Of a stretch of 32,775 nt of DNA, positions 6,876 through 31,764 are shown piece by piece (position 1 is the first letter of the stretch; each line of letters starts with the position of its first letter). The position numbers and the translations under genes are program-made. This stretch comes from a virus (taxonomy: Duplodnaviria; Heunggongvirae; Uroviricota; Caudoviricetes). The notes beneath the pieces were generated by a model. The model was not told the origin of the DNA. It was given only the letters and a program-made list of their open reading frames with translations, and made no database searches. The stretch is taken from IMG/VR virus record IMGVR_UViG_2913152634_000001, one strand, 5' to 3'.

Positions 6876-7118
6876 TCTTTTTGAGTAATTACCATAAAAT
6901 GCTCAGGCTACCGCTTGGGATATCCCATGGAATGCTCAGTGTATACGCTTTATGCATAGGGTATAAAGGCTGCAATTGGCAACAATTGTGCTGACATGGA
7001 GATAAACTCATGTTGAAACTAGTGAGAGTACGTCAGTACAACCGCTATCGTTTCGGACGTTGGGAGACGGTGCGTAAACACCGCCGTTCTTACCCAACAC
7101 GATGAGATGATATGCGGC

Positions 7119-8867: not shown

Positions 8868-8955
8868 TAATGAGTTGACATCAGAGTTTCTTATGTATTC
8901 GGTATTTAACCATATTGATTCAGTACAACTTGTTTCTGCATCATGATTGCGGTCT

Positions 8956-9327
8956 TTAATTTTTTTGATAATTTGTTTTTGTTGCCTCTAGTTTTATTTT
9001 TAATGTTTTAACTATTTCTCTTTTCTTACTTATCTCTTTTTCGATCTCGGTATTTTCTTTGCTTAATGTAAAAATCCCTTTTTGAACATCTTTATCAAAG
9101 AAGTTGTCTTCAATGAACTTTGTATTATAAACCAATGGACGATAGTTATTAATGTTTGTGCAGCGGCAGTCCCTATAGTCATCGTCTGCTGGATTATAGA
9201 AAAAATTTGATATGGTAGATTTCCCAGCTCCGTTTTGCCCGTAAAGGATATTTATTCTTTTTTCGAGGGATATTTTCGTATATTTATTTTTGTCGTAGCT
9301 TGTTACATTTTTTAGACTAAGTTCCAT
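8956..9327 (-). CDS. N-terminal fragment (Walker A P-loop) of the same split ABC ATPase gene
   Basis: 123-aa ORF with Walker A YGQNGAGKST at residues 29-38; it ends in a homopolymer tract (7 T on the plus strand, 8960-8966) where the downstream 582-aa frame is already open. The two ORFs are in different frames, consistent with one gene split by a 1-nt indel. Confidence 0.7.
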   Translation of the reverse strand: MELSLKNVTSYDKNKYTKISLEKRINILYGQNGAGKSTISNFFYNPADDDYRDCRCTNINNYRPLVYNTKFIEDNFFDKDVQKGIFTLSKENTEIEKEISKKREIVKTLKIKLEATKTNYQKN

Positions 9328-9569
9328 TTTTATTTTTCTCTATTGTTTGTGTGTGTATATATGAAAACTGGTCAAAAATTGCTCTGGAAAAGACATGGCA
9401 ATTACAAAAGATCTACCTTAGATGAGTAACATTTTCAAGCCACAGCTAAGCTTTCAGTTGCATGATTTTGCATTTGATTTTGTGGTCTAAAACCTAAGAT
9501 GAACACTTTGTTGGGTAAGGTGTGTGTATACGAATGCAACTGCATTAAAACCGCCCCGTGAAGCGGGCG

Positions 9570-9588
9570 GGCGAGGCGGGGAAAGCAC
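9570..9588. other. P2-type cos site (19-nt cohesive-end sequence)
   Basis: GGCGAGGCGGGGAAAGCAC at 9570-9588 matches the P2 cohesive-end sequence as I remember it, and lies at the expected map position between the old/tin locus and Q. Confidence 0.7.
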
Positions 9589-9730
9589 TGCGCGCTGGCG
9601 GTGGTGCTGATTTTATTTTTTCAGCGCCTGAGCGCGTCGTGATGGCGTTTAGATTGTTCGCCGGGGCGTTGGTGTGTCTGTGGGATGTTTTGTGCGGTGG
9701 TGAGCGTGTGAGGGCGTGATGGCGGGTTGT

Positions 9731-9752
9731 AAAAAAGCCGCCCGCAGGCGGC
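9731..9752 (-). terminator. rho-independent terminator downstream of Q (end of the P-Q operon)
   Basis: GC hairpin GCCGCC-CGCA-GGCGGC (9737-9752) followed on the minus strand by a run of 6 T (plus-strand AAAAAA at 9731-9736), directly after the Q stop at 9758. Confidence 0.6.
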
Positions 9753-9757
9753 GATGT

Positions 9758-10792
9758 TCAGCCGTTGTCAGTGTCCAGTGAGTAGTTTTTAAAGCGGATG
9801 ACCTCCTGACCGAGCCAGCCGTTTATCTCGCGGATCCTGTCCTGTAGCGGGATAAGCTCATTGCGGACAAAGACCTTTGCCACTTTCTCAATATCACCCA
9901 GCGACCCGACGTTCTCCGGCTTGCCGCCCATCAACTGAAAGGGGATGCGGTGCGCGTCCAGCAGGTCAGCGGCGCTGGCTTTTTTGATATTAAAAAAATC
10001 GTCCTTCGTCGCCACTTCACTGAGCGGGATAATTTTAATGCCGTCGGCTTTCCCCTGCGGGGCATAGAGAAACAGGTTTTTAAAGTTGTTGCGGCCTTTC
10101 GACTTCACCATGTTTTCGCGAAGCATTTCGATATCGTTGCGGTCCTGCACGGCATCGGTGACGTACATGATGTATCCGGCATGTGCGCCGTTTTCGTAAT
10201 ACTTGCGGCGGAACAGCGTGGCTGACTCATTCAGCCAGGCAGAGTTAAGGGCGCTGAGATATTCCGGCAGGCCGTACAGCTCCTGATTAATATCGGGCTC
10301 CAGCAGGTGAAACACGGAACCGGGCGCGAAGGCTGTCGGCTCGTTGAAGGACGGCACCCACCAGTAAACATCCTCCTCCACGCCACGGCGGGTATATTTT
10401 GCCGGTGAGGTTTCCAGTCTGATGACCTTACCGGTGGTGCTGTAACGCTTTTCCAGAAACGCATTACCGAAAACCAGAAAATCCAGCACAAAGCGGCTGA
10501 AATCCTGCTGGGAAAGCCACGGGTGCGGGATAAACGTTGAAGCCAGAATATTACGTTTGACGTAAATCGGTGAGCTGTGATGCACGGCAGCACGCAGACT
10601 TTTTGCCAGACCGGTAAAGCTGACCGGTGGCTCATACCATCTGCCGTTACTGATGCATTCGACGTAATCCAGAATGTCACGGCGGTCGAGTACCGGCACC
10701 GGTTCGCCAAAGGTGAATGCCTCCATTTTCGGGGCGCTGGCGGTCATTTTTTTTGCCGCAGGTTGCAGTGTTTTCCCTTTTTTCTTGCTCAT
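9758..10792 (-). CDS. Q: portal protein
   Basis: 344-aa minus-strand ORF; size and position match P2 gpQ; the ATG at 10790-10792 overlaps the stop of P. Confidence 0.9.
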   Translation of the reverse strand: MSKKKGKTLQPAAKKMTASAPKMEAFTFGEPVPVLDRRDILDYVECISNGRWYEPPVSFTGLAKSLRAAVHHSSPIYVKRNILASTFIPHPWLSQQDFSRFVLDFLVFGNAFLEKRYSTTGKVIRLETSPAKYTRRGVEEDVYWWVPSFNEPTAFAPGSVFHLLEPDINQELYGLPEYLSALNSAWLNESATLFRRKYYENGAHAGYIMYVTDAVQDRNDIEMLRENMVKSKGRNNFKNLFLYAPQGKADGIKIIPLSEVATKDDFFNIKKASAADLLDAHRIPFQLMGGKPENVGSLGDIEKVAKVFVRNELIPLQDRIREINGWLGQEVIRFKNYSLDTDNG

Positions 10793-12564
10793 CAGTAAAA
10801 CTCCAGAATGGTGGATGTCAGCGGGGTGCTGATACCGGCGGTGAGTGGCTCATTTAACAGGGCGTGCATGGTCGCCCAGGCGAGGTCGGCGTGGCTGGCT
10901 TCCTCGCTGCGGCTGGCCTCATAAGTGGCGCTGCGTCCGCTGCTGGTCATGGTCTTGCGGATAGCCATGAACGAGCTGGTGATGTCGGTGGCGCTGACGT
11001 CATATTCCAGACAGCCACGGCGGATAACGTCTTTTGCCTTGAGCACCATTGCGGTTTTCATTTCCGGCGTGTAGCGGATATCGCGCGCGGCGGGATAGAA
11101 CGAGCGCACGAGCTGGAACACGCCGACACCGAGGCCGGTGGCATCAATCCCGATGTATTCAACGTTATATTTTTCGGTGAGTTTGCGGATGGATTCCGCC
11201 TGAGTGGCAAAGTCCATGCCTTTCCACTGGTGACGCTCAAGTATTCTGAATTTGCCACCGGCCACCACCGGCGGTGCCAGCACCACGCATCCGGCACTGT
11301 CGCCACGGTGTGACGGGTCGTAACCAATCCATACCGGGCGGGAGCCGAACGGATTGGCGGCAAAGGGTGCATAGTCTTCCCATTCTTCCAGCGTGTCGAC
11401 CATGCAGCGTTGCAGCTCCTCGAACGGGAACACCGACGCCTTGTCGTCAACAAATTCACACATGAACAGGTTTTTAAAATCGTCGGCGCTGTTTTCGCGT
11501 TTGAGCTGCTCAATGTCGAACAGCGTGCAGCCACCTTTCAGGGCGTCCTCAATGGTGACAATCTGTCGCCACTGGCCGTCCGCACAGAGAAGCCCACCGG
11601 CAAGGGCGTTATGACTGACGTCGATTTCCACGCGTTCGGCGGCGCTGGCGCGTCCCCGGTTATACAGTTCACCCGACCAGAACGGGTAGGCGTCGTGCGC
11701 CAGCGTGGACGGGGTGGAGAAATAGGTCGAACGCAGGTGACTCTGTGAGGCCATACCTGATGCCACCTTACGCAGTACCTGAAAATTCGGGATCCAGAAA
11801 ATCTCGTCGACGTACAGGTCGCCGTTATGGCTCTGCGCGGTGTTGGAGTTGGTGCCGAGAAAAATCAGTTTTGCGCCGTTATTGCCCAGGACAATCGGGT
11901 CACCGGTCAGGTCAACGTCAACCAGACGGGCAAAGGCGATGATGTATTCGCGGAACACATACGCCTGCGTTTTACTGGCCGACAGAAAAATCTGGTTATG
12001 ACCGGTTTTCAGGGCGCGCAGCAGCGCCTCGCGGGAAAAATAAAATGTCGCGCCAATCTGGCGGGATTTCAGGATATCGCGGATGCGGTGCTCAAGCCCG
12101 GCGCGATACCAGTGCAACTGATAGTCGAAAGACTGCTCAAAGAAAATCTGCTCCAGCTTTTCGATGGCTTCGTCACTGAAAAAATTCTTTTTCGGTTTGC
12201 GCCGCCCGCCTTTGTTGCGGTTAGCGACGTTCGGATTAAGGTCTGCCTCGTTGCCGGTCTGGCTGTAGCGATTTACCCGTGCCAGTCGTTCAATCTGGCG
12301 TCCCAGCAGGTCAATTTCCTTGAAGTCACCGCCGGTTTTCTGCGGTTTGATGATGAGCTGGGTCAGCCGCGCTTCCAGGCTCATTTCGACACGGCTGATG
12401 GGGGCAACGCTGTCCCAGCCGTCGCGCTGTTTCCAGCTCTGCACCGTCGGGCGTTTCATCTGCAACATGGCGGCAATCTGCGGCACGGAAAACCCCTGCC
12501 AGTACAGCAGCGCCGCCTGACGACGCGGGTCGTGTAAAAGAGTGGTGTCTGTGGTGATGGTCAT
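10792..12564 (-). CDS. P: terminase large (ATPase) subunit
   Basis: Start taken as the ATG at 12562-12564 (MTITTDTTLL), with GAGGT about 6 nt upstream, giving 590 aa as I recall for P2 gpP. The track start at 12594 is a TTG. Confidence 0.9.
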   Translation of the reverse strand: MTITTDTTLLHDPRRQAALLYWQGFSVPQIAAMLQMKRPTVQSWKQRDGWDSVAPISRVEMSLEARLTQLIIKPQKTGGDFKEIDLLGRQIERLARVNRYSQTGNEADLNPNVANRNKGGRRKPKKNFFSDEAIEKLEQIFFEQSFDYQLHWYRAGLEHRIRDILKSRQIGATFYFSREALLRALKTGHNQIFLSASKTQAYVFREYIIAFARLVDVDLTGDPIVLGNNGAKLIFLGTNSNTAQSHNGDLYVDEIFWIPNFQVLRKVASGMASQSHLRSTYFSTPSTLAHDAYPFWSGELYNRGRASAAERVEIDVSHNALAGGLLCADGQWRQIVTIEDALKGGCTLFDIEQLKRENSADDFKNLFMCEFVDDKASVFPFEELQRCMVDTLEEWEDYAPFAANPFGSRPVWIGYDPSHRGDSAGCVVLAPPVVAGGKFRILERHQWKGMDFATQAESIRKLTEKYNVEYIGIDATGLGVGVFQLVRSFYPAARDIRYTPEMKTAMVLKAKDVIRRGCLEYDVSATDITSSFMAIRKTMTSSGRSATYEASRSEEASHADLAWATMHALLNEPLTAGISTPLTSTILEFY

Positions 12565-12737
12565 GAATACCTCGCCGTGATGAATACACGGCAAGGCTAC
12601 TGAGTCGCGCCCCGCGATTCGCTAAGGTGCTGTTGTGTCAGTGATAAGCCATCCGGGACTGATGGCGGAGGATGCGCATCGTCGGGAAACTGATGCCGAC
12701 ATGTGACTCCTCTAATCACTATTCAGGACTCCTGACA

Positions 12738-13592
12738 ATGGCAAAAAAAGTCTCAAAATTCTTTCGTATCGGCGTTGAGGGTGACACCTGTGACGGGCGT
12801 GTCATCAGTGCGCAGGATATTCAGGAAATGGCCGAAACCTTTGACCCGCGAGTCTATGGTTGCCGCATTAACCTGGAACATCTGCGCGGCATCCTGCCTG
12901 ACGGTATTTTTAAGCGTTATGGCGATGTGGTCGAACTGAAGGCCGAAAAGATTGACGATGATTCGGCGCTGAAAGGCAAATGGGCGCTGTTTGCGAAAAT
13001 CACCCCGACCGATGACCTTATCGCGATGAACAAGGCCGCGCAGAAGGTCTATACCTCAATGGAAATTCAGCCGAACTTTGCCAATACAGGCAAATGTTAT
13101 CTGGTGGGTCTGGCCGTCACCGATGACCCGGCAAGCCTCGGCACGGAATACCTGGAATTCTGCCGCACGGCAAAACACAACCCCCTGAACCGCTTCAAAT
13201 TAAGCCCTGAAAACCTGATTTCAGTGGCAACGCCTGTTGAGCTGGAATTTGAAGACCTGCCTGAAACCGTGTTCACCGCCCTGACCGAAAAGGTGAAATC
13301 CATTTTTGGCCGCAAACAGGCCAGCGATGACGCCCGTCTGAATGACGTGCATGAAGCGGTGACCGCTGTTGCTGAACATGTGCAGGAAAAACTGAGCGCC
13401 ACTGAGCAGCGCCTCGCTGAGGTGGAAACCGCCTTTTCCGCACTTAAGCAGGAGGTGACTGACAGGGCGGATGAAACCAGTCAGGCATTCAGCCGCCTGA
13501 AAAACAGTCTCGACAACACCGAAAGTCTGACCCAGCAGCGCCGCAGCAAGGCCACCGGTGGTGGCGGTGACGCCCTGATGACGAACTGCTGA
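12738..13592 (+). CDS. O: capsid scaffolding protein
   Basis: Divergent from P; start placed at the ATG at 12738 (MAKKVSKFFRIGVEGDTCDGR), giving 284 aa, the size I recall for P2 gpO. The track ORF begins upstream at 12672. Confidence 0.85.
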   Translation: MAKKVSKFFRIGVEGDTCDGRVISAQDIQEMAETFDPRVYGCRINLEHLRGILPDGIFKRYGDVVELKAEKIDDDSALKGKWALFAKITPTDDLIAMNKAAQKVYTSMEIQPNFANTGKCYLVGLAVTDDPASLGTEYLEFCRTAKHNPLNRFKLSPENLISVATPVELEFEDLPETVFTALTEKVKSIFGRKQASDDARLNDVHEAVTAVAEHVQEKLSATEQRLAEVETAFSALKQEVTDRADETSQAFSRLKNSLDNTESLTQQRRSKATGGGGDALMTNC

Positions 13593-13650
13593 CCGGCGTC
13601 AGTCAGTCCGGGAAAACCTTCACGATTAACCCTTAATTTCAGGAAAAACT

Positions 13651-14724
13651 ATGCGCCAGGAAACCCGCTTTAAATTTAATGCCTACCTGTCCCGTGTTGC
13701 CGAACTGAACGGCATTGACGCCGGTGATGTGTCGAAAAAATTCACCGTTGAACCGTCGGTCACCCAGACCCTGATGAACACCATGCAGGAGTCCTCTGAC
13801 TTTCTGACCCGCATCAACATTGTGCCGGTCAGCGAAATGAAAGGGGAAAAAATTGGTATCGGTGTCACCGGCTCCATCGCCAGCACCACCGACACTGCCG
13901 GTGGCACCGAGCGTCAGCCGAAGGACTTCTCGAAGCTGGCGTCAAACAAGTACGAATGCGACCAGATTAACTTCGATTTTTATATCCGCTACAAAACGCT
14001 TGACCTGTGGGCGCGTTATCAGGATTTCCAGCTCCGTGTCCGTAACGCCATTATCAAACGCCAGTCCCTTGATTTAATCATGGCCGGTTTTAACGGCGTG
14101 AAGCGTGCCGAAACCTCTGACCACAGCAGTAACCCGATGCTGCAGGATGTGGCGGTCGGCTGGCTGCAGAAATACCGCAATGAAGCCCCGGCGCGCGTGA
14201 TGAGCAAGGTTACTGACGAGGAAGGTCACACGACCTCTGAGGTCATCCGCGTGGGTAAGGGCGGTGATTATGCCAGCCTCGATGCACTGGTGATGGATGC
14301 GACCAACAACCTGATTGAGCCGTGGTATCAGGAAGACCCTGACCTTGTGGTGATTGTGGGGCGTCAGCTACTGGCGGACAAGTATTTCCCCATCGTCAAC
14401 AAGGAGCAGGACAACAGCGAAATGCTGGCCGCTGACGTCATCATCAGCCAGAAACGCATCGGTAACCTGCCGGCGGTACGTGTCCCGTACTTCCCGGCGG
14501 ATGCGATGCTCATCACGAAGCTGGAAAACCTGTCCATCTACTACATGGATGACAGCCATCGCCGCGTGATTGAGGAAAACCCAAAACTCGACCGCGTGGA
14601 GAACTACGAGTCAATGAACATTGATTACGTGGTGGAGGACTACGCCGCCGGTTGTCTGGTGGAAAAAATTAAGGTCGGTGATTTCTCCACACCGGCTAAG
14701 GCGACCGCAGAGCCGGGAGCGTAA
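13651..14724 (+). CDS. N: major capsid protein
   Basis: 357-aa ORF following O; P2 gpN size and position. Confidence 0.9.
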   Translation: MRQETRFKFNAYLSRVAELNGIDAGDVSKKFTVEPSVTQTLMNTMQESSDFLTRINIVPVSEMKGEKIGIGVTGSIASTTDTAGGTERQPKDFSKLASNKYECDQINFDFYIRYKTLDLWARYQDFQLRVRNAIIKRQSLDLIMAGFNGVKRAETSDHSSNPMLQDVAVGWLQKYRNEAPARVMSKVTDEEGHTTSEVIRVGKGGDYASLDALVMDATNNLIEPWYQEDPDLVVIVGRQLLADKYFPIVNKEQDNSEMLAADVIISQKRIGNLPAVRVPYFPADAMLITKLENLSIYYMDDSHRRVIEENPKLDRVENYESMNIDYVVEDYAAGCLVEKIKVGDFSTPAKATAEPGA

Positions 14725-14727
14725 CCG

Positions 14728-15471
14728 ATGACGAGTCCCGCACAGCGCCACATGATGCGGGTCTCGGCAGCGATGACCGCGCAGCGGGAAGCCGCCCCGC
14801 TGCGACATGCAACTGTCTATGAGCAGATGCTGGTCAAGCTGGCCGCAGACCAGCGCACACTGAAAGCGATTTATTCAAAAGAGCTGAAGGCCGCGAAAAA
14901 ACGCGAACTGCTGCCGTTCTGGTTGCCGTGGGTGAACGGCGTGCTGGAGCAGGGCAAAGGCGCACAGGATGACATTCTGATGACGGTCATGCTGTGGCGT
15001 CTGGATACCGGCGATATTGCCGGTGCGCTGGAGATTGCCCGTTATGCCCTGAAGTACGGTCTGACCATGCCGGGTAAACACCGCCGCACCCCGCCGTACA
15101 TGTTCACCGAGGAGGTAGCGCTTGCGGCCATGCGCGCCCACGCGGCCGGTGAGTCTGTGGATACCCGCCTGCTGACGGAGACCCTTGAACTGACTGCCGC
15201 TGCTGACATGCCTGATGAAGTGCGCGCAAAGCTGCACAAAATCACCGGTCTGTTTCTGCGTGACGGTGGTGATGCCGCCGGTGCGCTGGCTCACCTGCAA
15301 CGTGCGACACAGCTCGACTGTCAGGCAGGCGTCAAAAAAGAGATTGAACGACTGGAGCGGGAGCTGAAACCGAAGCCGGAGCCGCAGCCCAAAGCGGCCC
15401 CCCGCACTCCGCGTAAGACCCGGAGCGTGACACCGGCAAAACGTGGACGCCCGAAAAAGAAAGCCAGTTAA
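14728..15471 (+). CDS. M: terminase small (endonuclease) subunit
   Basis: 247-aa ORF following N; P2 gpM size and position; Lys/Arg-rich C-terminal tail. Confidence 0.85.
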   Translation: MTSPAQRHMMRVSAAMTAQREAAPLRHATVYEQMLVKLAADQRTLKAIYSKELKAAKKRELLPFWLPWVNGVLEQGKGAQDDILMTVMLWRLDTGDIAGALEIARYALKYGLTMPGKHRRTPPYMFTEEVALAAMRAHAAGESVDTRLLTETLELTAAADMPDEVRAKLHKITGLFLRDGGDAAGALAHLQRATQLDCQAGVKKEIERLERELKPKPEPQPKAAPRTPRKTRSVTPAKRGRPKKKAS

Positions 15472-15570
15472 CAACCGAATGCGCCCCGCGCCAGGGCGGC
15501 ACGCCGGTCAGTGAGGGTGAATCACCTGACACTGCACCGGCGTCCACCGCCCGACTTTTCAGAGGTAGTC

Positions 15571-16080
15571 ATGATGACGCTGATTATTCCGCGAAAGGAG
15601 GCTCCCGTGTCCGGTGAGGGTACGGTGGTCATCCCGCAACCGGCAGGCGACGAGCCGGTGATTAAAAACACGTTCTTTTTTCCCGATATCGACCCGAAGC
15701 GCGTCCGGGAACGTATGCGCCTTGAGCAGACCGTCGCCCCCGCCCGTCTGCGTGAGGCTATCAAGTCAGGCATGGCGGAGACAAATGCGGAGCTGTACGA
15801 GTATCGCGAACAGAAAATTGCCGCCGGTTTTACGCGTCTGGCGGACGTCCCGGCGGACGACATCGACGGTGAAAGCATCAAAGTTTTTTACTACGAGCGC
15901 GCCGTGTGTGCGATGGCGACCGCGTCGCTTTATGAGCGTTATCGCGGCGTGGATGCCAGTGCGAAAGGCGACAAGAAGGCTGACAGCATTGACAGCACCA
16001 TTGATGAGCTGTGGCGGGATATGCGCTGGGCGGTGGCGCGCATCCAGGGCAAGCCGCGCTGCATCGTGAGTCAAATCTGA
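15571..16080 (+). CDS. L: head completion/stabilisation protein
   Basis: Start taken at the ATG at 15571 (MMTLIIP), giving 169 aa, the P2 gpL size as recalled; the track ORF starts upstream. Confidence 0.85.
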   Translation: MMTLIIPRKEAPVSGEGTVVIPQPAGDEPVIKNTFFFPDIDPKRVRERMRLEQTVAPARLREAIKSGMAETNAELYEYREQKIAAGFTRLADVPADDIDGESIKVFYYERAVCAMATASLYERYRGVDASAKGDKKADSIDSTIDELWRDMRWAVARIQGKPRCIVSQI

Positions 16081-16283
16081 TGAAGACCTTTGCGCTACAG
16101 GGCGACACGCTCGACGCCATTTGTGTCCGGTATTACGGGCGCACTGAGGGCGTGGTCGAAGCCGTGCTCGCCGCAAATCCGGGACTGGCTGAACTGGGCG
16201 CGGTGCTGCCGCACGGCACCGCCGTCGAGCTGCCCGACGTTCAGACCGCGCCCGTGGCTGAAACTGTCAATCTGTGGGAGTAA
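16080..16283 (+). CDS. X: tail protein X
   Basis: 67 aa from the ATG at 16080 (MKTFALQGDTLDAICVRYYGR), overlapping the L stop; P2 gpX size and position. Confidence 0.85.
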   Translation: MKTFALQGDTLDAICVRYYGRTEGVVEAVLAANPGLAELGAVLPHGTAVELPDVQTAPVAETVNLWE

Positions 16284-16286
16284 CGC

Positions 16287-16568
16287 ATGACAGCAGAAGA
16301 AAAAAGCGTCCTGTCGCTTTTCATGATTGGGGTGCTGATTGTTGTCGGCAAGGTGCTTGCCGGTGGTGAACCCATCACCCCGCGTCTGTTTATCGGGCGC
16401 ATGTTGCTCGGTGGCTTTGTCTCGATGGTTGCCGGTGTTGTTCTGGTGCAGTTTCCTGACCTGTCACTGCCTGCGGTGTGCGGCATTGGCTCCATGCTGG
16501 GTATCGCCGGTTATCAGGTGATTGAGATTGCCATTCAGCGCCGCTTTAAGGGCAGGGGGAAACAGTAA
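16287..16568 (+). CDS. Y: holin
   Basis: 93-aa protein with hydrophobic transmembrane segments and a charged C-terminus, directly upstream of the endolysin; P2 gpY position. Confidence 0.85.
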   Translation: MTAEEKSVLSLFMIGVLIVVGKVLAGGEPITPRLFIGRMLLGGFVSMVAGVVLVQFPDLSLPAVCGIGSMLGIAGYQVIEIAIQRRFKGRGKQ

Positions 16569-17065
16569 TGCCGGTAATGAACACGCATCAGAATATCGCC
16601 GCCTTTCTCGACATGCTGGCCGTGTCCGAAGGGACGGCGAACCATCCGCTGACGAAAAACCGGGGCTATGACGTGATAGTCACCGGACTGGACGGGAAGC
16701 CGGAAATTTTCACCGACTACAGTGACCACCCGTTCGCGCATGGCCGACCGGCGAAGGTGTTTAACCGTCGCGGTGAAAAATCCACGGCCTCCGGTCGCTA
16801 TCAGCAGCTTTACCTGTTCTGGCCGCATTACCGCAAACAGCTTGCCCTGCCGGATTTCAGTCCGTTGTCACAGGACAGACTCGCCATTCAGTTGATCCGC
16901 GAACGCGGTGCGCTGGATGACATCCGGGCGGGACGCATTGAGCGCGCCATTTCACGCTGTCGCAATATCTGGGCGTCCCTGCCGGGTGCCGGTTACGGTC
17001 AGCGTGAGCATTCACTGGAAAAACTGGTCACCGTCTGGCGTACCGCCGGCGGCGTACCGGCTTAA
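16568..17065 (+). CDS. K: endolysin
   Basis: 165-aa ORF at the P2 gpK position and of P2 gpK size as recalled. Confidence 0.85.
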   Translation: MPVMNTHQNIAAFLDMLAVSEGTANHPLTKNRGYDVIVTGLDGKPEIFTDYSDHPFAHGRPAKVFNRRGEKSTASGRYQQLYLFWPHYRKQLALPDFSPLSQDRLAIQLIRERGALDDIRAGRIERAISRCRNIWASLPGAGYGQREHSLEKLVTVWRTAGGVPA

Positions 17066-17079
17066 ACGGAGTAAACACC

Positions 17080-17505
17080 ATGAAGAAATTATCCCTTTCA
17101 CTGATGCTGAACGTGTCGCTGGCGCTGATGCTGGCACTGTCCCTGATTTACCCGCAGAGCGTGGCCGTCAATTTTGTTGTTGCCTGGGCGATTCTGGCGA
17201 CGGTTATCTGTGTGGTTGCCGGTGGTGTCGGCGTGTATGCCACTGAGTATGTGCTGGAACGCTACGGGCGGGAGCTGCCGCCGGAATCGCTGGCCGTGAA
17301 GATTGTCACGTCGCTGTTTTTGCAGCCGGTGCCGTGGCGCAGGCGGGCAGCGGCTCTGGTGGTGATGGTGGCGACGTTTATCTCGCTGGTCGCTGCCGGG
17401 TGGATTTTTACCGCGCTGATTTACCTCGTGGCGTCGGTGTTCTTCCGGTTGATACGCACGGCCTGTCGTCAGCGTTTTGAGGGGCGGGAACCATGTCAAA
17501 GCTGA
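17080..17505 (+). CDS. lysA: lysis regulatory membrane protein LysA
   Basis: 141-aa hydrophobic protein following K; P2 lysA position and size. Confidence 0.8.
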   Translation: MKKLSLSLMLNVSLALMLALSLIYPQSVAVNFVVAWAILATVICVVAGGVGVYATEYVLERYGRELPPESLAVKIVTSLFLQPVPWRRRAAALVVMVATFISLVAAGWIFTALIYLVASVFFRLIRTACRQRFEGREPCQS

Positions 17506-17918
17506 TGATTGTGCTGGTTGTGTTGTTATCACTGGCGGTGGCCGGTCTGTTTCTGGCGAAGCATGAAAACGCCAGCCTGCGCACCTCGCTGGACAGGGCG
17601 AACAATGTCGCCAGCGGGCAGCAGACGATCATCACCATGCTGAAAAATCAGCTTCATGTTGCGCTCACCAGGGCAGAAAAAAACGAGCTGGCGCAGGTGG
17701 CACTGCGTCAGGAACTGGAAAACGCCGCGAAGCGTGAAGCACAGCGCGAGAAAACCATCACGAGGTTACTCAATGAAAACGAAGATTTTCGCCGCTGGTA
17801 CGGTGCTGACCTGCCTGATGCTGTGCGCCGGTTGCACCAGCGTCCGGCCTGCACCGACGCCAGTGATTGTCGCCAACGCCTGCCCGAAAGTGAGTCTTTG
17901 CCCGATGCCGGGCAGTGA
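17493..17918 (+). CDS. lysB: Rz-like inner-membrane spanin LysB
   Basis: 141 aa with an N-terminal transmembrane helix and coiled-coil periplasmic region; P2 lysB position. Confidence 0.8.
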   Translation: MSKLMIVLVVLLSLAVAGLFLAKHENASLRTSLDRANNVASGQQTIITMLKNQLHVALTRAEKNELAQVALRQELENAAKREAQREKTITRLLNENEDFRRWYGADLPDAVRRLHQRPACTDASDCRQRLPESESLPDAGQ

Positions 17919-18063
17919 CCCGCAGACGAACGGCGATTTAAGTGCTGATATCAGGCAGCTTGAGAACGCGCTGGCACGCTGTGCCAGCCAGGTAAAAATG
18001 ATTAAACACTGTCAGGACGAAAACGATGCTCAAACCCGACAGCCTGCGCAGGGCGCTGACTGA
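17773..18063 (+). CDS. lysC: Rz1-like outer-membrane lipoprotein spanin LysC
   Basis: ATG at 17773 in an alternative frame overlapping the 3' part of lysB; MKTKIFAAGTVLTCLMLCAGC carries a lipobox-like LCAGC; 96 aa, Pro-rich. Confidence 0.75.
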   Translation: MKTKIFAAGTVLTCLMLCAGCTSVRPAPTPVIVANACPKVSLCPMPGSDPQTNGDLSADIRQLENALARCASQVKMIKHCQDENDAQTRQPAQGAD

Positions 18064-18493
18064 TGCCGTCACGGTGCTGAAAACCAGTCCCGAGATGCTG
18101 CGGATATTCGTTGATAACGGGAGTATTGCCTCCACGCTGGCGACGTCGTTGTCATTCGAAAAGCGTTACACGCTCAATGTGATTGTGACCGACTTTACCG
18201 GTGATTTTGACCTGCTCATCGTGCCTGTGCTGGCGTGGCTGCGGGAAAATCAGCCCGACATCATGACCACCGACGCAGGCCAGAAAAAGGGCTTCACGTT
18301 TTATGCAGACATCAACAATGACAGCAGCTTTGATATCAGCATCAGCCTGATGCTGACCGAGCGCACGCTGGTCAGTGAGGTGGACGGCGCGCTGCATGTG
18401 AAGAATATCCCGGAACCCACGCCGCCGGAGCCGGTCACCCGCCCGATGGAGCTTTATATCAATGGCGAACTGGTGAGCAAGTGGGATGAATGA
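18026..18493 (+). CDS. R: tail completion protein R
   Basis: 155-aa ORF; P2 gpR position and size. Confidence 0.85.
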   Translation: MLKPDSLRRALTDAVTVLKTSPEMLRIFVDNGSIASTLATSLSFEKRYTLNVIVTDFTGDFDLLIVPVLAWLRENQPDIMTTDAGQKKGFTFYADINNDSSFDISISLMLTERTLVSEVDGALHVKNIPEPTPPEPVTRPMELYINGELVSKWDE

Positions 18494-18938
18494 GTTTAAG
18501 CGTTTTGAAGACCGGCTGACCGGACTGACTGAATCGCTGTCACCGTCAGGGCGTCGGCGACTGAGTGCCGAACTGGCGAAACGTCTGCGGCAGAGTCAGC
18601 AGCGTCGGGTGATGGCACAGAAAGCCCCGGACGGCACACCCTACGCACCACGCCAGCAGCAGAGCGCCAGAAAAAAGACCGGTCGTGTTAAGCGAAAAAT
18701 GTTTGCGAAACTTATCACCAGTCGTTTTTTGCATATCCGCGCCAGCCCGGAACAGGCATCAATGGAATTTTACGGCGGGAAGTCGCCGAAAATCGCCAGT
18801 GTGCATCAGTTCGGTCTGTCGGAAGAAACCCGGAAAGACGGTAAGAAAATTGATTATCCGGCGCGTCCTCTGCTCGGCTTTACCGGTGAGGATGTGCAGA
18901 TGATTGAAGAGATTATCCTGGCTCACCTCGACCGTTAG
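18486..18938 (+). CDS. S: tail completion protein S
   Basis: 150-aa ORF; P2 gpS position and size. Confidence 0.85.
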   Translation: MNEFKRFEDRLTGLTESLSPSGRRRLSAELAKRLRQSQQRRVMAQKAPDGTPYAPRQQQSARKKTGRVKRKMFAKLITSRFLHIRASPEQASMEFYGGKSPKIASVHQFGLSEETRKDGKKIDYPARPLLGFTGEDVQMIEEIILAHLDR

Positions 18939-19004
18939 TTGTGCCATTCCCGACACCTCATCGTCACATTGCCGCCGGTATGACCCGGCGGCATCCTTCC
19001 CGTT

Positions 19005-19639
19005 ATGAACACTCTCGCAAATATCCAGGAACTCGCGCGCGCACTGCGCAACATGATTCGCACCGGCCTTGTCGTCGAAACCAACCTTAAAGCCGGTCGC
19101 TGCCGTGTGCAGACCGGCGGCATGTGCACCGACTGGCTTCAGTGGCTGACCTGTCGTGCCGGGCGTTCGCGCACATGGTGGGCACCTTCCGTGGGGAACA
19201 GGTGCTGATTCTGGCCGTGGGCGGTGAACTCGACACGGCGTTCGTTCTGCCGGGGATTTATTCCGGCGATAACCCCGCACCGTCTGCGTCGGCGGATGCC
19301 CTGCATATCCGTTTCCCTGACGGGGCGGTGATTGAGTATGAACCTGAAACCAGTGCGCTCACGGTAAGCGGAATTAAAACGGCCAGCGTGACGGCTTCTG
19401 ATTCTGTTACTGCCACGGTGCCGGTGGTCATGGTGAAAGCGTCAACCCGCATCACCCTGGACACACCGGAGGTGGTCTGCACCAACAGGCTGATTACCGG
19501 CACGCTGGAAGTACAGAAGGGCGGGACGATGCGCGGCAACATTGAACACACCGGCGGTGAACTCTCATCAAACGGTAAGGTACTGCATACCCATAAACAC
19601 CCCGGCGACAGCGGCGGCACAACCGGGGGACCTCTATGA
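19005..19639 (+). pseudogene. V: baseplate spike protein V, interrupted by a 1-nt frameshift
   Basis: ORF 19005..19208 (MNTLANIQELARALRNMIRTG...TWWAPSVG) and ORF 19124..19639 (...EQVLILAVGGELDTAFVLPGIYSG...) are two frames of one gene. The span is 635 nt, one short of the 636 nt needed for 211 aa plus stop (P2 gpV length as recalled). The frames switch at the GGGG run at 19193-19196. Confidence 0.8.
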
Positions 19640-19983
19640 CTGCGCGTTATCTCGGAATGAATCGCAGTGATGGCCTGACTGTCACTGACCTTGAGCATAT
19701 CAGCCAGAGTATCGGCGATATCCTGCGCACACCGGTCGGCTCGCGGGTGATGCGTCGTGATTACGGCTCGTTGCTGGCGTCAATGATTGACCAGCCGCAG
19801 ACTCCGGCGCTTGAGTTGCAGATTAAGGTCGCCTGTTACATGGCGGTGCTGAAATGGGAACCCCGCGTCACCCTGTCATCCGTCACCACGGCGCGCAGCT
19901 TTGACGGTCGAATGACAGTTACGTTAACCGGCCAGCATAACGACACCGGCCAGCCACTTTCGTTAACCATCCCTGTGAGTTGA
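19636..19983 (+). CDS. W: baseplate wedge protein W
   Basis: 115-aa ORF; P2 gpW size and position. Confidence 0.85.
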   Translation: MTARYLGMNRSDGLTVTDLEHISQSIGDILRTPVGSRVMRRDYGSLLASMIDQPQTPALELQIKVACYMAVLKWEPRVTLSSVTTARSFDGRMTVTLTGQHNDTGQPLSLTIPVS

Positions 19984-21429: not shown

Positions 21430-23358
21430 ATGAGCACAAAATTCAAAACCGTTATCACCACTGCCGGTGCAGCAAAGCTGGCAGCGGCAACCGCACCGGG
21501 AGGGCGGAAGGTCAACATTACCACGATGGCCGTCGGGGATGGCGGTGGTAAATTGCCTGTCCCGGATGCCGGACAGACCGGGCTTATCCATGAAGTCTGG
21601 CGACATGCGCTGAACAAAATCAGCCAGGACAAACGAAACAGTAATTATATTATCGCAGAGCTGGTTATTCCGCCGGAGGTGGGCGGTTTCTGGATGCGTG
21701 AGCTTGGCCTGTACGATGATGCGGGAACGTTAATTGCCGTGGCGAACATGGCCGAAAGCTATAAGCCAGCCCTTGCCGAAGGCTCAGGACGTTCGCAGAC
21801 CTGTCGCATGGTCATCATCGTCAGCAGTGTGGCCTCAGTGGAGCTGACCATTGACACCACAACGGTGATGGCGACGCAGGATTACGTTGATGACAAAATT
21901 GCAGAGCACGAACAGTCACGACGTCACCCTGACGCCTCGCTGACCGCAAAAGGTTTTACTCAGTTAAGCAGTGCGACCAACAGTACGTCTGAAACACTGG
22001 CTGCAACGCCGAAAGCGGTTAAGGCCGCATATGACCTGGCTAACGGGAAATATACCGCACAGGACGCTACCACAGCGCGAAAAGGTCTTGTCCAGCTCAG
22101 TAGTGCCACCAACAGCACGTCTGAAACGCTCGCCGCAACACCAAAAGCGGTAAAAGCAGCATATGACCTGGCTAACGGGAAATATACCGCACAGGACGCT
22201 ACCACAGCGCGAAAAGGTCTTGTCCAGCTCAGTAGTGCCACCAACAGCACGTCTGAAACGCTCGCCGCAACACCAAAAGCGGTAAAAGCAGCATATGACC
22301 TGGCTAACGGGAAATATACCGCACAGGACGCCACCACAGCGCGAAAAGGCCTTGTCCAGCTCAGTAGCGCCACCAACAGTGATTCTGAAACGCTGGCCGC
22401 AACACCAAAAGCAGTGAAGTCTGCCTATGACAATGCTGAAAAACGTCTTCAGAAAGATCAGAACGGTGCGGATATTCCGGGAAAGGATACCTTCACGAAA
22501 AATATCGGTGCCTGTCGTGCTTATAGTGGCGCTTTGAGCACTGAAGCCGGAAACTGGACAACCGCGCAGTTTATTGAATGGCTGGATTCCCGTGGTGCAT
22601 TTAATCATCCGTACTGGATGTGCAAATGTTCATGGTCATACGGCAATAATAAAATTATTACCGATACTGGCTGTGGAACTATTCATCTTGCAGGTTGCGT
22701 TATTGAGGTTATGGGTAATAAAGGTGCCATGACCATCCGTGTAACAACACCAAGCACTTCCACCGGAGGCGGCACCACTAACGCTCAATTCACTTATATT
22801 AATCATGGTGATGCTTATGCCCCCGGCTGGCGACGAGACTACAACACGAAAAACCAGCAGCCTGCATTTGCTTTAGGGCAAACAGGAAGCAGGGTTGCAA
22901 ATGATAAAGCTGTTGGCTGGAACTGGAATAGCGGTGTTTATGATGCAGATATCAGCGGTGCATCGACATTAATCCTCCACTTCAATATGAATGCGGGGAG
23001 TTGCCCTGCCGTACAGTTCCGTGTGAATTATAAGAACGGCGGTATTTTTTATCGTTCAGCACGTGATGGTTATGGATTTGAGGCTGACTGGTCAGAGTTT
23101 TACACCACAACCCGCAAACCCTCTGCGGGAGATGTTGGTGCATATACCAAAGCTGAATCGGATTCTCGCTATGTACGAGATATTCGCCTGGGCACACGTG
23201 TTGTTCAGACTATGCAAAAAGGTGTGATGTATGAAAAATCAGGCCATGTAATTACAGGGCTTGGTATTGTCGGTGAAGTCGATGGTGATGACCCCGCAGT
23301 ATTCAGACCAATACAAAAATACATCAATGGCACATGGTATAACGTCGCACAGGTGTAA
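21430..23358 (+). CDS. H: tail fibre protein H with internal tandem fibre repeats
   Basis: 642-aa ORF after I; contains 3.6 tandem copies of a 44-aa unit (QLSSATNSTSETLAATPKAVKAAYDLANGKYTAQDATTARKGLV), a phage tail-fibre repeat; divergent, more AT-rich C-terminal domain. Confidence 0.85.
   Translation: MSTKFKTVITTAGAAKLAAATAPGGRKVNITTMAVGDGGGKLPVPDAGQTGLIHEVWRHALNKISQDKRNSNYIIAELVIPPEVGGFWMRELGLYDDAGTLIAVANMAESYKPALAEGSGRSQTCRMVIIVSSVASVELTIDTTTVMATQDYVDDKIAEHEQSRRHPDASLTAKGFTQLSSATNSTSETLAATPKAVKAAYDLANGKYTAQDATTARKGLVQLSSATNSTSETLAATPKAVKAAYDLANGKYTAQDATTARKGLVQLSSATNSTSETLAATPKAVKAAYDLANGKYTAQDATTARKGLVQLSSATNSDSETLAATPKAVKSAYDNAEKRLQKDQNGADIPGKDTFTKNIGACRAYSGALSTEAGNWTTAQFIEWLDSRGAFNHPYWMCKCSWSYGNNKIITDTGCGTIHLAGCVIEVMGNKGAMTIRVTTPSTSTGGGTTNAQFTYINHGDAYAPGWRRDYNTKNQQPAFALGQTGSRVANDKAVGWNWNSGVYDADISGASTLILHFNMNAGSCPAVQFRVNYKNGGIFYRSARDGYGFEADWSEFYTTTRKPSAGDVGAYTKAESDSRYVRDIRLGTRVVQTMQKGVMYEKSGHVITGLGIVGEVDGDDPAVFRPIQKYINGTWYNVAQV
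21961..22440 (+). repeat. 132-bp tandem repeat (about 3.6 copies) inside H
   Basis: Unit starts at 21961, 22093, 22225 and 22357; copies 2 and 3 differ at only about 2 positions; copy 1 differs mainly at synonymous sites; copy 4 diverges after about 80 bp. Confidence 0.9.
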
Positions 23359-24110: not shown

Positions 24111-24704
24111 ATGTTTACTAAGCGACGATTAAAAAATATTAATTGGGAGGCAAGTTCAGTGATTCTTGCTATGGTTCTCTTTATTGGAAATATATTTTAT
24201 ACGAATCATCGTGATGATATAAGCATGGAGGCTGAGAGAGACAGTATCAGAACAATGTTTGCATATGAAATCGCTAATAACCATCGCGCTCTCACTTTTC
24301 TTGATAAAACGAGAAATATTGGCTTTGACGAAAATTCGGAGCATTTTGTTGGCGAGCCTTTTGCCATTAATGTCAAATCATTAGGAGGGCCTCGCTTACA
24401 GATTGCATTAAACCAGACTGATAAAGTTTTTAAAGCCTACTTCAGTGAATTAAGTAAACTTGATAAAGAGGATGTTACTCTTCTTATGGACTATTACCAT
24501 GAGCAAAGCATCCTGCTGGAGTGTGTAAAATCTACGTTACAGAAGATGAAAAGTAGTAATGATATTAAAGTTGATATTGATGGTTACTTATTAGAAGAAC
24601 ACTTCATGAATGAGTTTAATCTTTCTAATATTTTGCTTAAACGCTATAGCCATTTGTTGTCACAACACCCAAAAAAACCTGAAACAAAAGATTTACATAA
24701 TTGA
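24111..24704 (+). CDS. orphan membrane-anchored protein in the Z/fun-position moron island
   Basis: 197-aa ORF with Shine-Dalgarno AAGGTG; one N-terminal hydrophobic helix (SSVILAMVLFIGNIFY) then a soluble domain; AT-rich relative to the flanking G and FI genes; no motif recognised. Confidence 0.7.
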   Translation: MFTKRRLKNINWEASSVILAMVLFIGNIFYTNHRDDISMEAERDSIRTMFAYEIANNHRALTFLDKTRNIGFDENSEHFVGEPFAINVKSLGGPRLQIALNQTDKVFKAYFSELSKLDKEDVTLLMDYYHEQSILLECVKSTLQKMKSSNDIKVDIDGYLLEEHFMNEFNLSNILLKRYSHLLSQHPKKPETKDLHN

Positions 24705-26237: not shown

Positions 26238-26756
26238 ATGGCAATGCCGCGCAAACTCAAGTTAATGAACGTCTTTCTGAACGGCTACAGCTATCAGGGC
26301 GTTGCAAAGTCCGTCACGCTGCCAAAACTGACCCGTAAGCTCGAAAACTATCGCGGTGCGGGAATGAACGGCAGCGCACCGGTAGACCTCGGCCTTGATG
26401 ACGATGCGCTGTCAATGGAGTGGTCGCTCGGGGGCTTCCCGGATTCGGTTATCTGGGAGCTTTACGCCGCAACCGGTGTGGATGCTGTGCCGATTCGTTT
26501 TGCAGGCTCTTACCAGCGTGACGATACCGGCGAAACGGTGGCCGTCGAGGTGGTCATGCGTGGACGTCAGAAAGAAATCGACACCGGCGAGGGTAAACAG
26601 GGAGAAGACACCGAGTCGAAAATCTCCGTGGTCTGCACCTATTTCCGGCTGACGATGGACGGTAAGGAGCTGGTCGAAATCGACACCATCAACATGATTG
26701 AGAAGGTGAACGGCGTCGACCGGCTGGAGCAACACCGCCGCAATATCGGCCTGTGA
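26238..26756 (+). CDS. FII: tail tube protein
   Basis: 172-aa ORF; P2 gpFII size and position. Confidence 0.9.
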   Translation: MAMPRKLKLMNVFLNGYSYQGVAKSVTLPKLTRKLENYRGAGMNGSAPVDLGLDDDALSMEWSLGGFPDSVIWELYAATGVDAVPIRFAGSYQRDDTGETVAVEVVMRGRQKEIDTGEGKQGEDTESKISVVCTYFRLTMDGKELVEIDTINMIEKVNGVDRLEQHRRNIGL

Positions 26757-26812
26757 TTTTCATCCGGTCAGCCTGGCTGACCGGTTAACCCCGATTCATA
26801 AGTGAGAAAACC

Positions 26813-27088
26813 ATGAACAAAGAAAATGTGATTACCCTGGACAATCCGGTCAAACGTGGTGAGCAGGTTATCGAACAGGTCACGCTGATGAAACCCAGTG
26901 CCGGGACGCTGCGCGGTGTCAGTCTGGCTGCGGTCGCGAACTCCGAAGTCGATGCACTGATTAAGGTGCTGCCGCGCATGACGGCACCGATGCTGACCGA
27001 GCAGGAAGTCGCCGCACTGGAACTGCCTGACCTTGTGGCGCTGGCCGGTAAGGTGGTCGGTTTTTTGTCGCCGAACTCGGTGCAGTGA
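26813..27088 (+). CDS. E: tail assembly chaperone E
   Basis: 91-aa ORF between FII and T; ends just after a slippery T6 run. Confidence 0.85.
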   Translation: MNKENVITLDNPVKRGEQVIEQVTLMKPSAGTLRGVSLAAVANSEVDALIKVLPRMTAPMLTEQEVAALELPDLVALAGKVVGFLSPNSVQ

Positions 27089-27240
27089 CGTTTCCGAAAA
27101 ATCTGTCGGTCGATGACCTGATGGCGGATGTGGCAGTGATATTTCACTGGCCGCCATCAGAACTGTATCCCATGAGCCTGACCGAACTCATCACATGGCG
27201 CGAAAAGGCGCTCCGGCGAAGCGGAAACACGAATGAGTAA
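26813..27240 (+). CDS. E+E' tail assembly chaperone made by programmed -1 ribosomal frameshift
   Basis: The slippery site GGTTTTTTG (27059-27067) lies 7 codons before the E stop; the -1 frame is open from there (FFVAELGAVTFPKNLSVDDLMADVAVIFHWPPSELYPMSLTELITWREKALRRSGNTNE) to a stop at 27238-27240, overlapping the start of T. This arrangement is conserved in P2 and other tail chaperone pairs. Confidence 0.65.
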
Positions 27241-29680
27241 CAATGTAAAATTACAGGTATTGCTCAGGGCTGTTGACCAGGCATCCCGCCCGTTTAAATC
27301 CATCCGCACAGCGAGCAAATCGCTGTCGGGGGATATCCGGGAAACACAAAAATCACTGCGCGAGCTGAACGGTCAGGCATCCCGTATTGAGGGATTCCGC
27401 AAGACCAGTGCACAGCTCGCCGTGACTGGTCATGCACTTGAAAAGGCTCGGCAGGAGGCCGAAGCCCTTGCCACACAGTTTAAAAATACCGAACGTCCGA
27501 CACGTGCTCAGGCGAAAGTGCTGGAATCCGCAAAGCGTGCGGCGGAGGACTTACAGGCGAAATATAACCGCCTGACGGATTCCGTTAAACGCCAGCAGCG
27601 GGAACTGGCCGCTGTGGGAATTAATACCCGCAATCTTGCACATGATGAGCAGGGACTGAAAAACCGTATCAGTGAAACCACCGCACAGCTTAACCGTCAG
27701 CGTGACGCACTGGCGCGTGTCAGTGCACAACAGGCAAAACTTAACGCAGTCAAACAGCGTTATCAGGCAGGCAAGGAACTGGCCGGAAATATGGCCTCAG
27801 TGGGCGCTGCCGGTGTGGGGATTGCGGCGGCGGGAACGATGGCCGGAGTTAAGCTGCTGATACCCGGTTATGAGTTTGCGCAGAAAAACTCAGAATTACA
27901 GGCTGTGCTCGGAGTGGCAAAAGACTCCGCCGAAATGGCCGCGCTCCGCAAACAGGCGCGCCAGCTCGGCGACAACACCGCCGCCTCGGCGGATGATGCG
28001 GCCGGTGCGCAGATTATCATTGCGAAAGCGGGTGGAGATGCTGCGGCTATTCAGGCGGCAACGCCGGTCACACTGAATATGGCACTGGCGAATCAGCGGT
28101 CGATGGAAGAAAACGCGCAACTGTTGCTGGGGACTAAGGCATCCTTTCAACTGTCAAATGATGATGTCAGCCATGTGGGCGACGTGTTGTCGGCAACGAT
28201 GAATAAGTCGGCGGCTGATTTTCAGGGACTCAGTGATGCACTGACTTACCTCGGTCCGGTTGCTAGGACGGCAGGTGTAAGTCTTGAACAGGCAGCGGCC
28301 ATGACAGGTGTGCTGCATGACAATAACATCAGGGGGTCAATGGCGGGGACGGGGAGCAGTGCCGTTGTCACCCGATTACAGGCACCGACTGGAAAAGCAT
28401 GGGATGCACTCAAAGAGCTTGGCGTTAAAACCTCGGACAAAAAGGGAAATATGCGTCCGTTGTTCACCATTCTGAAAGAGATTCAGGCCAGCTTTGATAA
28501 ACACAAGCTGGGAACGTCTCAGAAGGGGGAATACCTTAAAACCATTTTTGGTGAGGAAGCCCTGAAATCAGCGAACGTTTTACTGGCAGCGGCAGCAAGC
28601 GGAAAACTGGATAAGCTGACCGCCACGCTGAAAGCCTCGGACGGTAAAACGGAAGAGCTGGTTAAAATCATGCAGGATAACCTCGGCGGTGACTTTAAGG
28701 AGTTTCAGTCTGCTTATGAGGCGGTGGGGACTGACCTGTTTGACCAGCAGGAAGGCGCACTGCGTAATCTCACACAGACGGCCACAAAGTATGTGTTAAA
28801 ACTCGATGGCTGGATCCAGAAAAACAAATCACTGGCGTCAACCATCGGCCTCATTGCCGGTGGCGCACTGGCGCTTACTGGCATCATCGGTGCAATTGGT
28901 CTTGTCGCCTGGCCGGTTATCACCGGCATCAATGCCATCATCGCGGCAGCAGGCGCAATGGGTGCAATCTTCACGACGGTTGGCAGTGCCGTTATGACGG
29001 CCATCGGGGCGATTAGCTGGCCGGTAGTGGCCGTGGTGGCCGCCATTGTCGCCGGGGCGTTGCTTATCCGTAAATACTGGGAGCCTGTCAGCGCATTCTT
29101 TGGCGGTGTGATGGAAGGGCTGAAAGCGGCATTTGCGCCGGTGGGGGAACTGTTCACGCCACTTAAGCCGGTGTTTGACTGGCTGGGCGAAAAGTTACAG
29201 GCCGCGTGGCAGTGGTTTAAAAACCTGATTGCCCCGGTCAAAGCCACCCAGGACACCCTGAACCGTTGCCGTGATACTGGCGTCATGTTCGGGCAGGCAC
29301 TGGCTGACGCGCTGATGCTGCCGCTTAATGCGTTCAACAAATTACGCAGCGGCATTGACTGGGTACTGGAAAAACTCGGTGTTATCAACAAAGAGTCAGA
29401 CACACTTGACCAGACCGCCGCCAGAACTCAAGCCGCCACGTATGGCAGCGGTGGTTATATTCCGGCGACCAGCTCTTATGCAGGCTATCAGGCTTATCAG
29501 CCGGTCACGGCACCGGCTGGCCGCTCTTATGTGGACCAGAGTAAAAACGAATATCACATCAGCCTGACCGGTGGTACTGCGCCGGGGACACAGCTTGACC
29601 GCCAGTTACAGGATGCGCTCGAAAAATACGAGCGGGATAAACGTGCGCGCGCCCGTGCCAGCATGATGCATGACGGTTAA
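27233..29680 (+). CDS. T: tail tape measure protein
   Basis: 815-aa ORF with coiled-coil N-terminal half and Gly/Ala-rich hydrophobic segments; P2 gpT size and position. Confidence 0.9.
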   Translation: MSNNVKLQVLLRAVDQASRPFKSIRTASKSLSGDIRETQKSLRELNGQASRIEGFRKTSAQLAVTGHALEKARQEAEALATQFKNTERPTRAQAKVLESAKRAAEDLQAKYNRLTDSVKRQQRELAAVGINTRNLAHDEQGLKNRISETTAQLNRQRDALARVSAQQAKLNAVKQRYQAGKELAGNMASVGAAGVGIAAAGTMAGVKLLIPGYEFAQKNSELQAVLGVAKDSAEMAALRKQARQLGDNTAASADDAAGAQIIIAKAGGDAAAIQAATPVTLNMALANQRSMEENAQLLLGTKASFQLSNDDVSHVGDVLSATMNKSAADFQGLSDALTYLGPVARTAGVSLEQAAAMTGVLHDNNIRGSMAGTGSSAVVTRLQAPTGKAWDALKELGVKTSDKKGNMRPLFTILKEIQASFDKHKLGTSQKGEYLKTIFGEEALKSANVLLAAAASGKLDKLTATLKASDGKTEELVKIMQDNLGGDFKEFQSAYEAVGTDLFDQQEGALRNLTQTATKYVLKLDGWIQKNKSLASTIGLIAGGALALTGIIGAIGLVAWPVITGINAIIAAAGAMGAIFTTVGSAVMTAIGAISWPVVAVVAAIVAGALLIRKYWEPVSAFFGGVMEGLKAAFAPVGELFTPLKPVFDWLGEKLQAAWQWFKNLIAPVKATQDTLNRCRDTGVMFGQALADALMLPLNAFNKLRSGIDWVLEKLGVINKESDTLDQTAARTQAATYGSGGYIPATSSYAGYQAYQPVTAPAGRSYVDQSKNEYHISLTGGTAPGTQLDRQLQDALEKYERDKRARARASMMHDG

Positions 29681-31637: not shown

Positions 31638-31647
31638 TCACAAAAAT

Positions 31648-31672: not shown

Positions 31673-31764
31673 ATGGTCGATGTGGACGCTATGTGGACAG
31701 TGTTTGATATAAATCCATTTATATCATCAGGTTAGGTGCTTTTTTGTGACACCATCCCTGTCTT

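Follow-up and report, generated by a model that had tools for sequence, protein, structure and literature searches.

The question raised by this locus was whether the baseplate spike gene V of a P2-type prophage, which is interrupted by a change of reading frame, had been broken in the cell or only in the sequence record. The stretch of DNA analysed (32,775 nt, hereafter referred to as the window) was placed with the help of annotated relatives and represents a P2-type prophage of E. coli that lies between cpxP and fieF. Its layout was as follows.

1-1011, minus strand: integrase
following the integrase: repressor-like and Cox genes, replication gene A, portal and terminase genes, capsid and lysis genes
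7119-9327, minus strand: candidate defence gene PDC-S06, between gene A and the portal gene
thereafter: genes R-S-V-W-J-I-H-G, followed by the sheath, tube, tape-measure and gpD genes and by ogr
19636-19983, plus strand: gene W, a gp25-like baseplate wedge, annotated as GPW/gp25 in relatives
from 31831, following ogr: the host gene fieF

Gene V is situated between S and W in the late operon, and the order R, S, V, W, J, I, H, G matches that of annotated relatives. The ATG start codon of W overlaps the stop codon of V (ATGA). The V gene extends over positions 19005-19639, i.e. 635 nt, which is one base short of 211 codons plus stop, whereas the V span was 636 nt in every close relative. The missing base could be assigned to a G run at 19193-19196, which reads GGGG in the window and GGGGG in the relatives. 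In the latter, the run spans the codons GTG GGG GAA (Val63-Gly64-Glu65) and comprises the last G of GTG, all of GGG and the first G of GAA. The window reads ...TGG TGG GCA CCT TCC GTG GGG AAC AGG TGC TGA at this site, and the gene is thereby divided into the following parts.

19005-19208, plus strand: 5' part of V; Met1-Gly64 as in the native protein, then Asn-Arg-Cys and the stop codon TGA at 19206-19208; 67 aa, ending in ...WWAPSVGNRC
19193-19196, plus strand: site of the one-base loss, window compared with relatives
19197-19639, plus strand: 3' part of V, codons 65-211, in the -1 frame; the mechanical ORF extends over 19124-19639

The -1-frame ORF reads ...GEQVLILAVGG...HTHKHPGDSGGTTGGPL and ends at 19639. 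The 3' part comprises the remainder of the OB domain, the beta-helical trimer domain of the spike and the Apex tip with its iron-binding His-x-His motif (VLHTHKHPGD). An uninterrupted ORF of about 211 codons was thus absent from the window, the gene being distributed over two frames within 635 nt, and as written this V homologue is predicted to encode no functional gpV.

The identity of the gene was investigated with Pfam profiles and by alignment to the structure of the P2 spike. PF04717 (Phage_base_V OB domain) matched the N-terminal ORF over profile positions 1-56 of 75, the rest lying in the -1 frame, and PF18715 (Phage_spike) matched the downstream ORF (E = 1e-29). PF18946 (GpV Apex) scored 20.4 bits on the downstream ORF, just below the 20.8-bit cut-off, and exceeded this cut-off with 21.9 bits when the restored protein was used. 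The restored protein aligned with the P2 gpV crystal-structure chain 3QR8 over 211 of 211 residues (E = 2e-133), a resemblance to gpV that is not due to chance. It differs by a handful of substitutions from the central spike gpV of P2 (PDB 3QR8, 3QR7 and 3AQJ; PF04717, PF18715 and PF18946), with which it shares the three-domain layout, the HTHKHP apex motif and the gene order R-S-V-W-J-I-H-G. Unlike P2 and all close relatives, in which the gene is unbroken, the frame in the window is broken at codon 65 through the loss of one G, i.e. inside the OB domain (residues 19-86). This domain anchors the spike to the tube and baseplate (10.1101/2023.02.25.529910). V is essential in P2, as the amber mutant P2 vir1 Vam1 (codon 9) fails to grow on a non-suppressor host (10.1101/2023.02.25.529910), in agreement with an earlier statement that the prophage, if the lesion is real, cannot build a spike.

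The complete genome nearest to the window was that of E. coli Z1323HEC0355 (NZ_CP148363.1), which differed from it by two substitutions, four 1-nt indels and the position of an IS element. Inside V, one extra G at the G run was the sole difference. The first-pass annotation had described a P2-type V gene with its two halves in different frames, one base short, with the switch at GGGG, and had proposed an alignment to gpV of P2-like phages. All of this was borne out by the comparisons described above, including the single missing base.

Two further lesions, which that annotation had missed, could be observed. An IS481-like element occupies positions 5772-6865, with the target duplication of 7 bp (AACACTT) lying at 5765-5771 and 6866-6872. 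The insertion point is 17 nt upstream of the gene A stop codon, so that the last five residues of gpA, FDLFE, are replaced by LCKFTEILQLPPDK (14 others). The transposase ORF of the element (5829-6875) encodes 348 aa with rve and scored 221.6 bits with the NCBIfam IS481 profile, just below the cut-off of 224. The protein resulting from the fusion of A with the IS was found in identical form in 15 contigs, indicating that the insertion is real. In Z1323HEC0355, this IS is found at a distance of 2.6 kb, inverted and beyond the defence gene, and the two insertions are therefore independent.

The second lesion affects the candidate defence gene, the product of which is a 735-aa AAA_13 ATPase of the PADLOC candidate family PDC-S06 (E = 1.5e-249). 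Its position between A and the portal gene is presumably the tin/old cargo position of P2. A run of seven T at 8960-8966, as compared with six in other relatives (A7 and A6, respectively, on the coding strand), splits the protein into 123 and 582 aa. The differences from Z1323HEC0355 had first led to the suspicion that this T7 run was a private error. The suspicion was rejected, as the 123-aa fragment is listed for 39 blocks of the collection, among them seven with a contig of more than 1 Mb; the intact T6 form was present in eleven RefSeq relatives. Both the IS in gene A and the T7 frameshift are thus real, inherited features of the lineage.

These two lesions also served to recognise other assemblies of the same lineage, which were retrieved by looking up exact matches to three products, namely the A-IS fusion protein, the fragment of 123 aa and an ORF of 53 aa. 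Three such clone-mates were obtained. AERT01000012.1 (NCBI GCA_000193975.2) corresponded to window positions 1-19718 with 0 mismatches and one gap, the G of the V run. The scaffold YOKO23-1_320 from an ENA metagenome (ERZ28666827) corresponded to positions 1-19326, likewise with 0 mismatches and with the same G as the sole gap, and the same was true of CABWIN010000027.1 (GCA_902505105.1) over positions 6812-19326. The IS in gene A was common to AERT01000012.1 and YOKO23-1_320, and the T7 frameshift in the PDC-S06 gene was present in all three, indicating that these assemblies represent the lineage of the window. In all three, V had the GGGGG run and encoded 211 aa. The four-G run is therefore private to the window record and was never seen inherited. 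The accessions of the clone-mates and Logan runs gave no result in literature searches. The comparison thus separates the real lesions of the lineage, in gene A and PDC-S06, from the one that is private to this record. That the prophage is cryptic, as had been considered in the first-pass annotation, does not follow from the V site, since the clone-mates encode an intact V protein.

To determine how often the four-G allele occurs elsewhere, several collections were searched. The four-G pattern gave 0 matches in IMG/VR, in the GTDB species representatives and in JGI metagenomes, while the five-G pattern was found in at least 120 contigs of IMG/VR. The pattern of the site was recognised in 78 of 80 fetched gene V loci, all 78 with the in-frame 7-nt segment. 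A 91-nt query across the V site matched 1,752 places in 1,541 RefSeq complete E. coli genomes, none of them without a gap. With 50-nt queries that were able to seed on four-G subjects only, a four-G V was detected in five of the approximately 1,540 V-carrying RefSeq complete E. coli genomes, namely strains 1442, 720632, E308, RM12522-C8 and G3. PGAP labels V as frameshifted in all five. Exact-product look-ups with the 67-aa and 171-aa V fragments found no match, and for the 154-aa fragment the matches were confined to two Logan contigs, both noisy and of another haplotype. Among 236 pattern-recognised V copies in 263 fetched loci, 229 had five G and seven had four G; the seven were those of the five RefSeq genomes and the two Logan contigs.

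The five RefSeq pseudogenes (1442, 720632, E308, RM12522-C8 and G3) share with the window both the G5 to G4 change and the codon at which it occurs, so that their V genes likewise measure 635 nt, but they are found on other V haplotypes, in other prophages and at other integration sites. They are therefore independent events or errors and do not represent one allele by descent. All five were singletons on separate haplotypes, 15-27 mismatches away from the window and from one another. For four of the five, a five-G relative was found within 0-1 mismatch; for strain 1442, the nearest fetched relative was 12 mismatches away. This combination of separate haplotypes and near relatives with five G indicates that the change arose many times independently and was inherited by no clade seen.

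The quality of the assemblies with four G was variable. In strain 1442 (NZ_CP184048.1, 1-32587), 13 frameshifted CDS were present in the stretch shown, i.e. 12 phage genes and an IS21 transposase, and in strain 720632 (NZ_CP025842.1) several frameshifted CDS were present in the P2-like prophage, which indicates that these two 'complete' assemblies hold uncorrected indel errors. The two Logan read-assemblies with four G also carried further indels. In E308, RM12522-C8 and G3, V was the sole frameshift among the structural genes of the late operon and the prophages were otherwise clean; in E308, a tail-fibre-assembly gene on the opposite strand was frameshifted too.

Three other G5 runs of these prophages were used as controls in RefSeq. 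One genome with G4 was found for the run in gene T, where the local context is likewise GTGGGGGAAC (approximately 94% detectable), and one for the run in FII (approximately 48% detectable). The run at the 3' end of V gave 0 genomes, which is uninformative as only about 7% of relatives are detectable there. One-base alleles of the G5-to-G4 type are thus sporadic all over these prophages. Corrected for detectability, the V site is perhaps enriched about three- to fivefold over the control runs, with very small numbers.

Apart from V, one homopolymer anomaly was observed in the window, and it likewise concerns a G run. The change is located in the terminator of ogr, as listed below.

31662-31664, plus strand: second rare shortening of a G run, GGGG to GGG, compared with Z1323HEC0355 and PMV-1

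The terminator (31646-31673) has the stem AGCCCCTC-AGTT-GAGGGGCT, and in the window its right arm reads GAGGGCT. The intact CCCC of the left arm now faces only three G, which breaks an otherwise perfect 8-bp stem. GGGG was present in 17 of the 17 other fetched loci that contained the ogr terminator; the clone-mates were compared over the part of the prophage upstream of it. Look-ups towards the right-hand part of the clone-mate contigs with the tail fibre, the 197-aa protein, the tape measure and gpD led to other lineages only, these proteins being too widespread. The three-G terminator had no exact match in RefSeq complete E. coli. The loss of this G might be a second undercall of a G run, confined to this record, or else a lineage marker.

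Whether the V defect was real or an artefact had been left open in the first-pass annotation. The three clone-mates with five G and the second G-run shortening favour an artefact, and the four-G run of V is probably (roughly 0.6) a homopolymer-length miscall. The base is missing in the record and present in the clone-mates, and on the strength of the sequence comparisons we infer that it was lost in sequencing or assembly and not in the cell; in the true prophage, the run would then have its normal length of five G and the 211 codons of V would be unbroken. A miscall is favoured by the clone-mates, which carry the G and show zero substitutions, by the four-G allele never being inherited and occurring in singletons only, and by several of its other occurrences lying in visibly error-rich assemblies. 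It is also favoured by the second rare contraction of a G run in the same record, by the sporadic G5-to-G4 alleles at the control runs in genes T and FII, and by the nature of the site, a five-base G run. Among the deletion errors of nanopore (MinION) assemblies, those in homopolymers of 4-5 nt are the most frequent (PMC12007338). The window resembles known cases of homopolymer indel error (nanopore and PacBio; 454 and Ion Torrent) in that a deletion in a run of 4-5 nt, confined to a single assembly, breaks up a gene. Unlike assemblies typical of such errors, it holds only two candidate errors in 32.8 kb, and the diagnosis derives from the comparison with clone-mates and not from reads. It also speaks against a miscall that AERT01000012.1 is otherwise identical over 19.7 kb, so that the record is not grossly noisy.

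A very recent slipped-strand deletion of one G in the isolate itself, after which the V product would stop inside the OB domain, is the main rival explanation and is less likely than a miscall. It takes the sequence as given, with an OB domain split at codon 65 in a gene that is essential in P2. In the otherwise clean prophages of E308, RM12522-C8 and G3, this change is the one frameshift among the late genes, and four G was somewhat more frequent at V than at the control runs (five matches as compared with 0-1), which might reflect a genuine slippage hotspot. The lineage already bears real lesions, so that real decay would not be surprising. However, the deletion was present in one record only, the clone-mate assemblies all had five G and no clade inherits the four-G form. 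Zero substitutions over 19.7 kb between clone-mates make a mutation in the window unlikely a priori, and the presence of another rare G-run shortening in this record is better accounted for by a technical bias. If the deletion were real, no central spike trimer would be formed and assembly of the baseplate and tail would fail, while the prophage would still excise and lyse; infective particles would not be produced unless a co-resident P2-like phage supplied V. Termination of V 430 nt upstream of W could, in addition, uncouple the translation of W and thus be polar on this gene. The result would be a spike-less, non-infective P2-type prophage in one isolate, i.e. everyday prophage decay with no wider consequence. 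The missing G is of use chiefly as a quality flag. If the run is a miscall, the annotation should show gene V and the tail module as intact, and errors should be suspected in further G/C runs of the source assembly, e.g. that of the ogr terminator at 31662. Both readings are ordinary, the one being an artefact and the other a routine prophage pseudogene of the kind already labelled 'frameshifted' by PGAP in five RefSeq genomes.

The recurrence of the four-G allele might also suggest that the five-G tract of V is a mutational hotspot or an on/off switch by which P2-like prophages are disarmed independently, possibly under selection. The identical change on at least six or seven independent haplotypes and the RefSeq counts (five at V as compared with 1, 1 and 0 at the three control runs) are consistent with such a role, which nevertheless appears very improbable. 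The numbers are small, the excess is just three- to fivefold after correction for detectability, two of the five RefSeq cases are in error-rich assemblies, and no benefit for the host is evident, as the lysis genes stay intact. Phase-variable tracts typically comprise seven or more bases, and a tract of five is far shorter. A long tract that varies in length among close relatives, as would characterise a phase-variable locus, was not what was found: the tract measures 5 nt, all occurrences were singletons (five in about 1,540 genomes) and the clone-mates were uniformly five-G.

Programmed or leaky -1 frameshifting at G_GGG, in which the tRNA-Gly of the P site would shift back by one base, pair anew and leave GAA as the next codon, is the most remote of the explanations considered. 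A -1 slip on GTG_GGG_A would re-pair perfectly with GGG and restore the wild-type ...V-G-E-Q..., and a small leak might matter, as three gpV chains would suffice per virion. The in-frame five-G form was, however, present in 229 of the 236 recognised copies in fetched loci, in the IMG/VR contigs mentioned above and in roughly 1,750 E. coli copies, and with the relatives in frame no lineage depends on recoding. The site, G_GGG_AAC, does not contain an X_XXY_YYZ heptamer, and re-pairing is limited to the P-site codon. The 74 nt that follow fold no better than shuffled sequences (z = -0.44), and PGAP annotates the four-G alleles as frameshifted pseudogenes. A programmed frameshift at V was therefore rejected on the grounds of conservation, heptamer and downstream fold. 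A trace leak from the four-G allele through a -1 slip in the P site is possible. That the five-G tract is a true slippage hotspot (at least six haplotypes) and that the four-G allele is at the same time slightly leaky, with three gpV copies needed per virion, is a combination to which hardly any weight can be given.

A genuine frameshift signal was observed at a different, conserved site of the same prophage. Gene E (tail chaperone, 26813-27240) carries an intact T_TTT_TTG heptamer at 27061-27067, which we take to be the known -1 frameshift signal of P2 E/E+E', and a second product of the GpE family was called at this slippery position in most of the fetched loci. The programmed frameshift of E/E+E' resembles the V site in that the frame changes within a tail gene, but it has the conserved heptamer, whereas the V site is without a conserved signal and is in frame in the relatives.

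Some further observations were made in the window and its relatives. Z1323HEC0355 has a private one-base loss of its own, GCAGGCAG to GCAGCAG, which frameshifts gene D (26676-27838 of NZ_CP148363.1, corresponding to window positions 30174-31337). Gene D is intact at this site in the window and in PMV-1, and the loss is thus another singleton indel, in a near-identical prophage. The tail fibre gene H (21430-23358, 642 aa) contains three to four tandem units of 44 residues (approximately 132 nt each) within 21945-22431, and the repeat unit includes ...KGLVQLSSATNSTSETLAATPKAVKAAYDLANGKYTAQDATTAR... In related prophages, fibres of 598, 669, 676, 720, 740 and 764 aa were found, and changes in the copy number of this repeat may explain part of the length variation. 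An ORF of 197 aa at 24111-24704 separates the tail-fibre assembly gene from the sheath gene. Its product had no match in Pfam, NCBIfam or PADLOC, and 242 blocks of the collection list the identical protein. The ORF, which lies at what is presumably the Z/fun cargo position of P2, may represent a cargo or defence gene not yet characterised.
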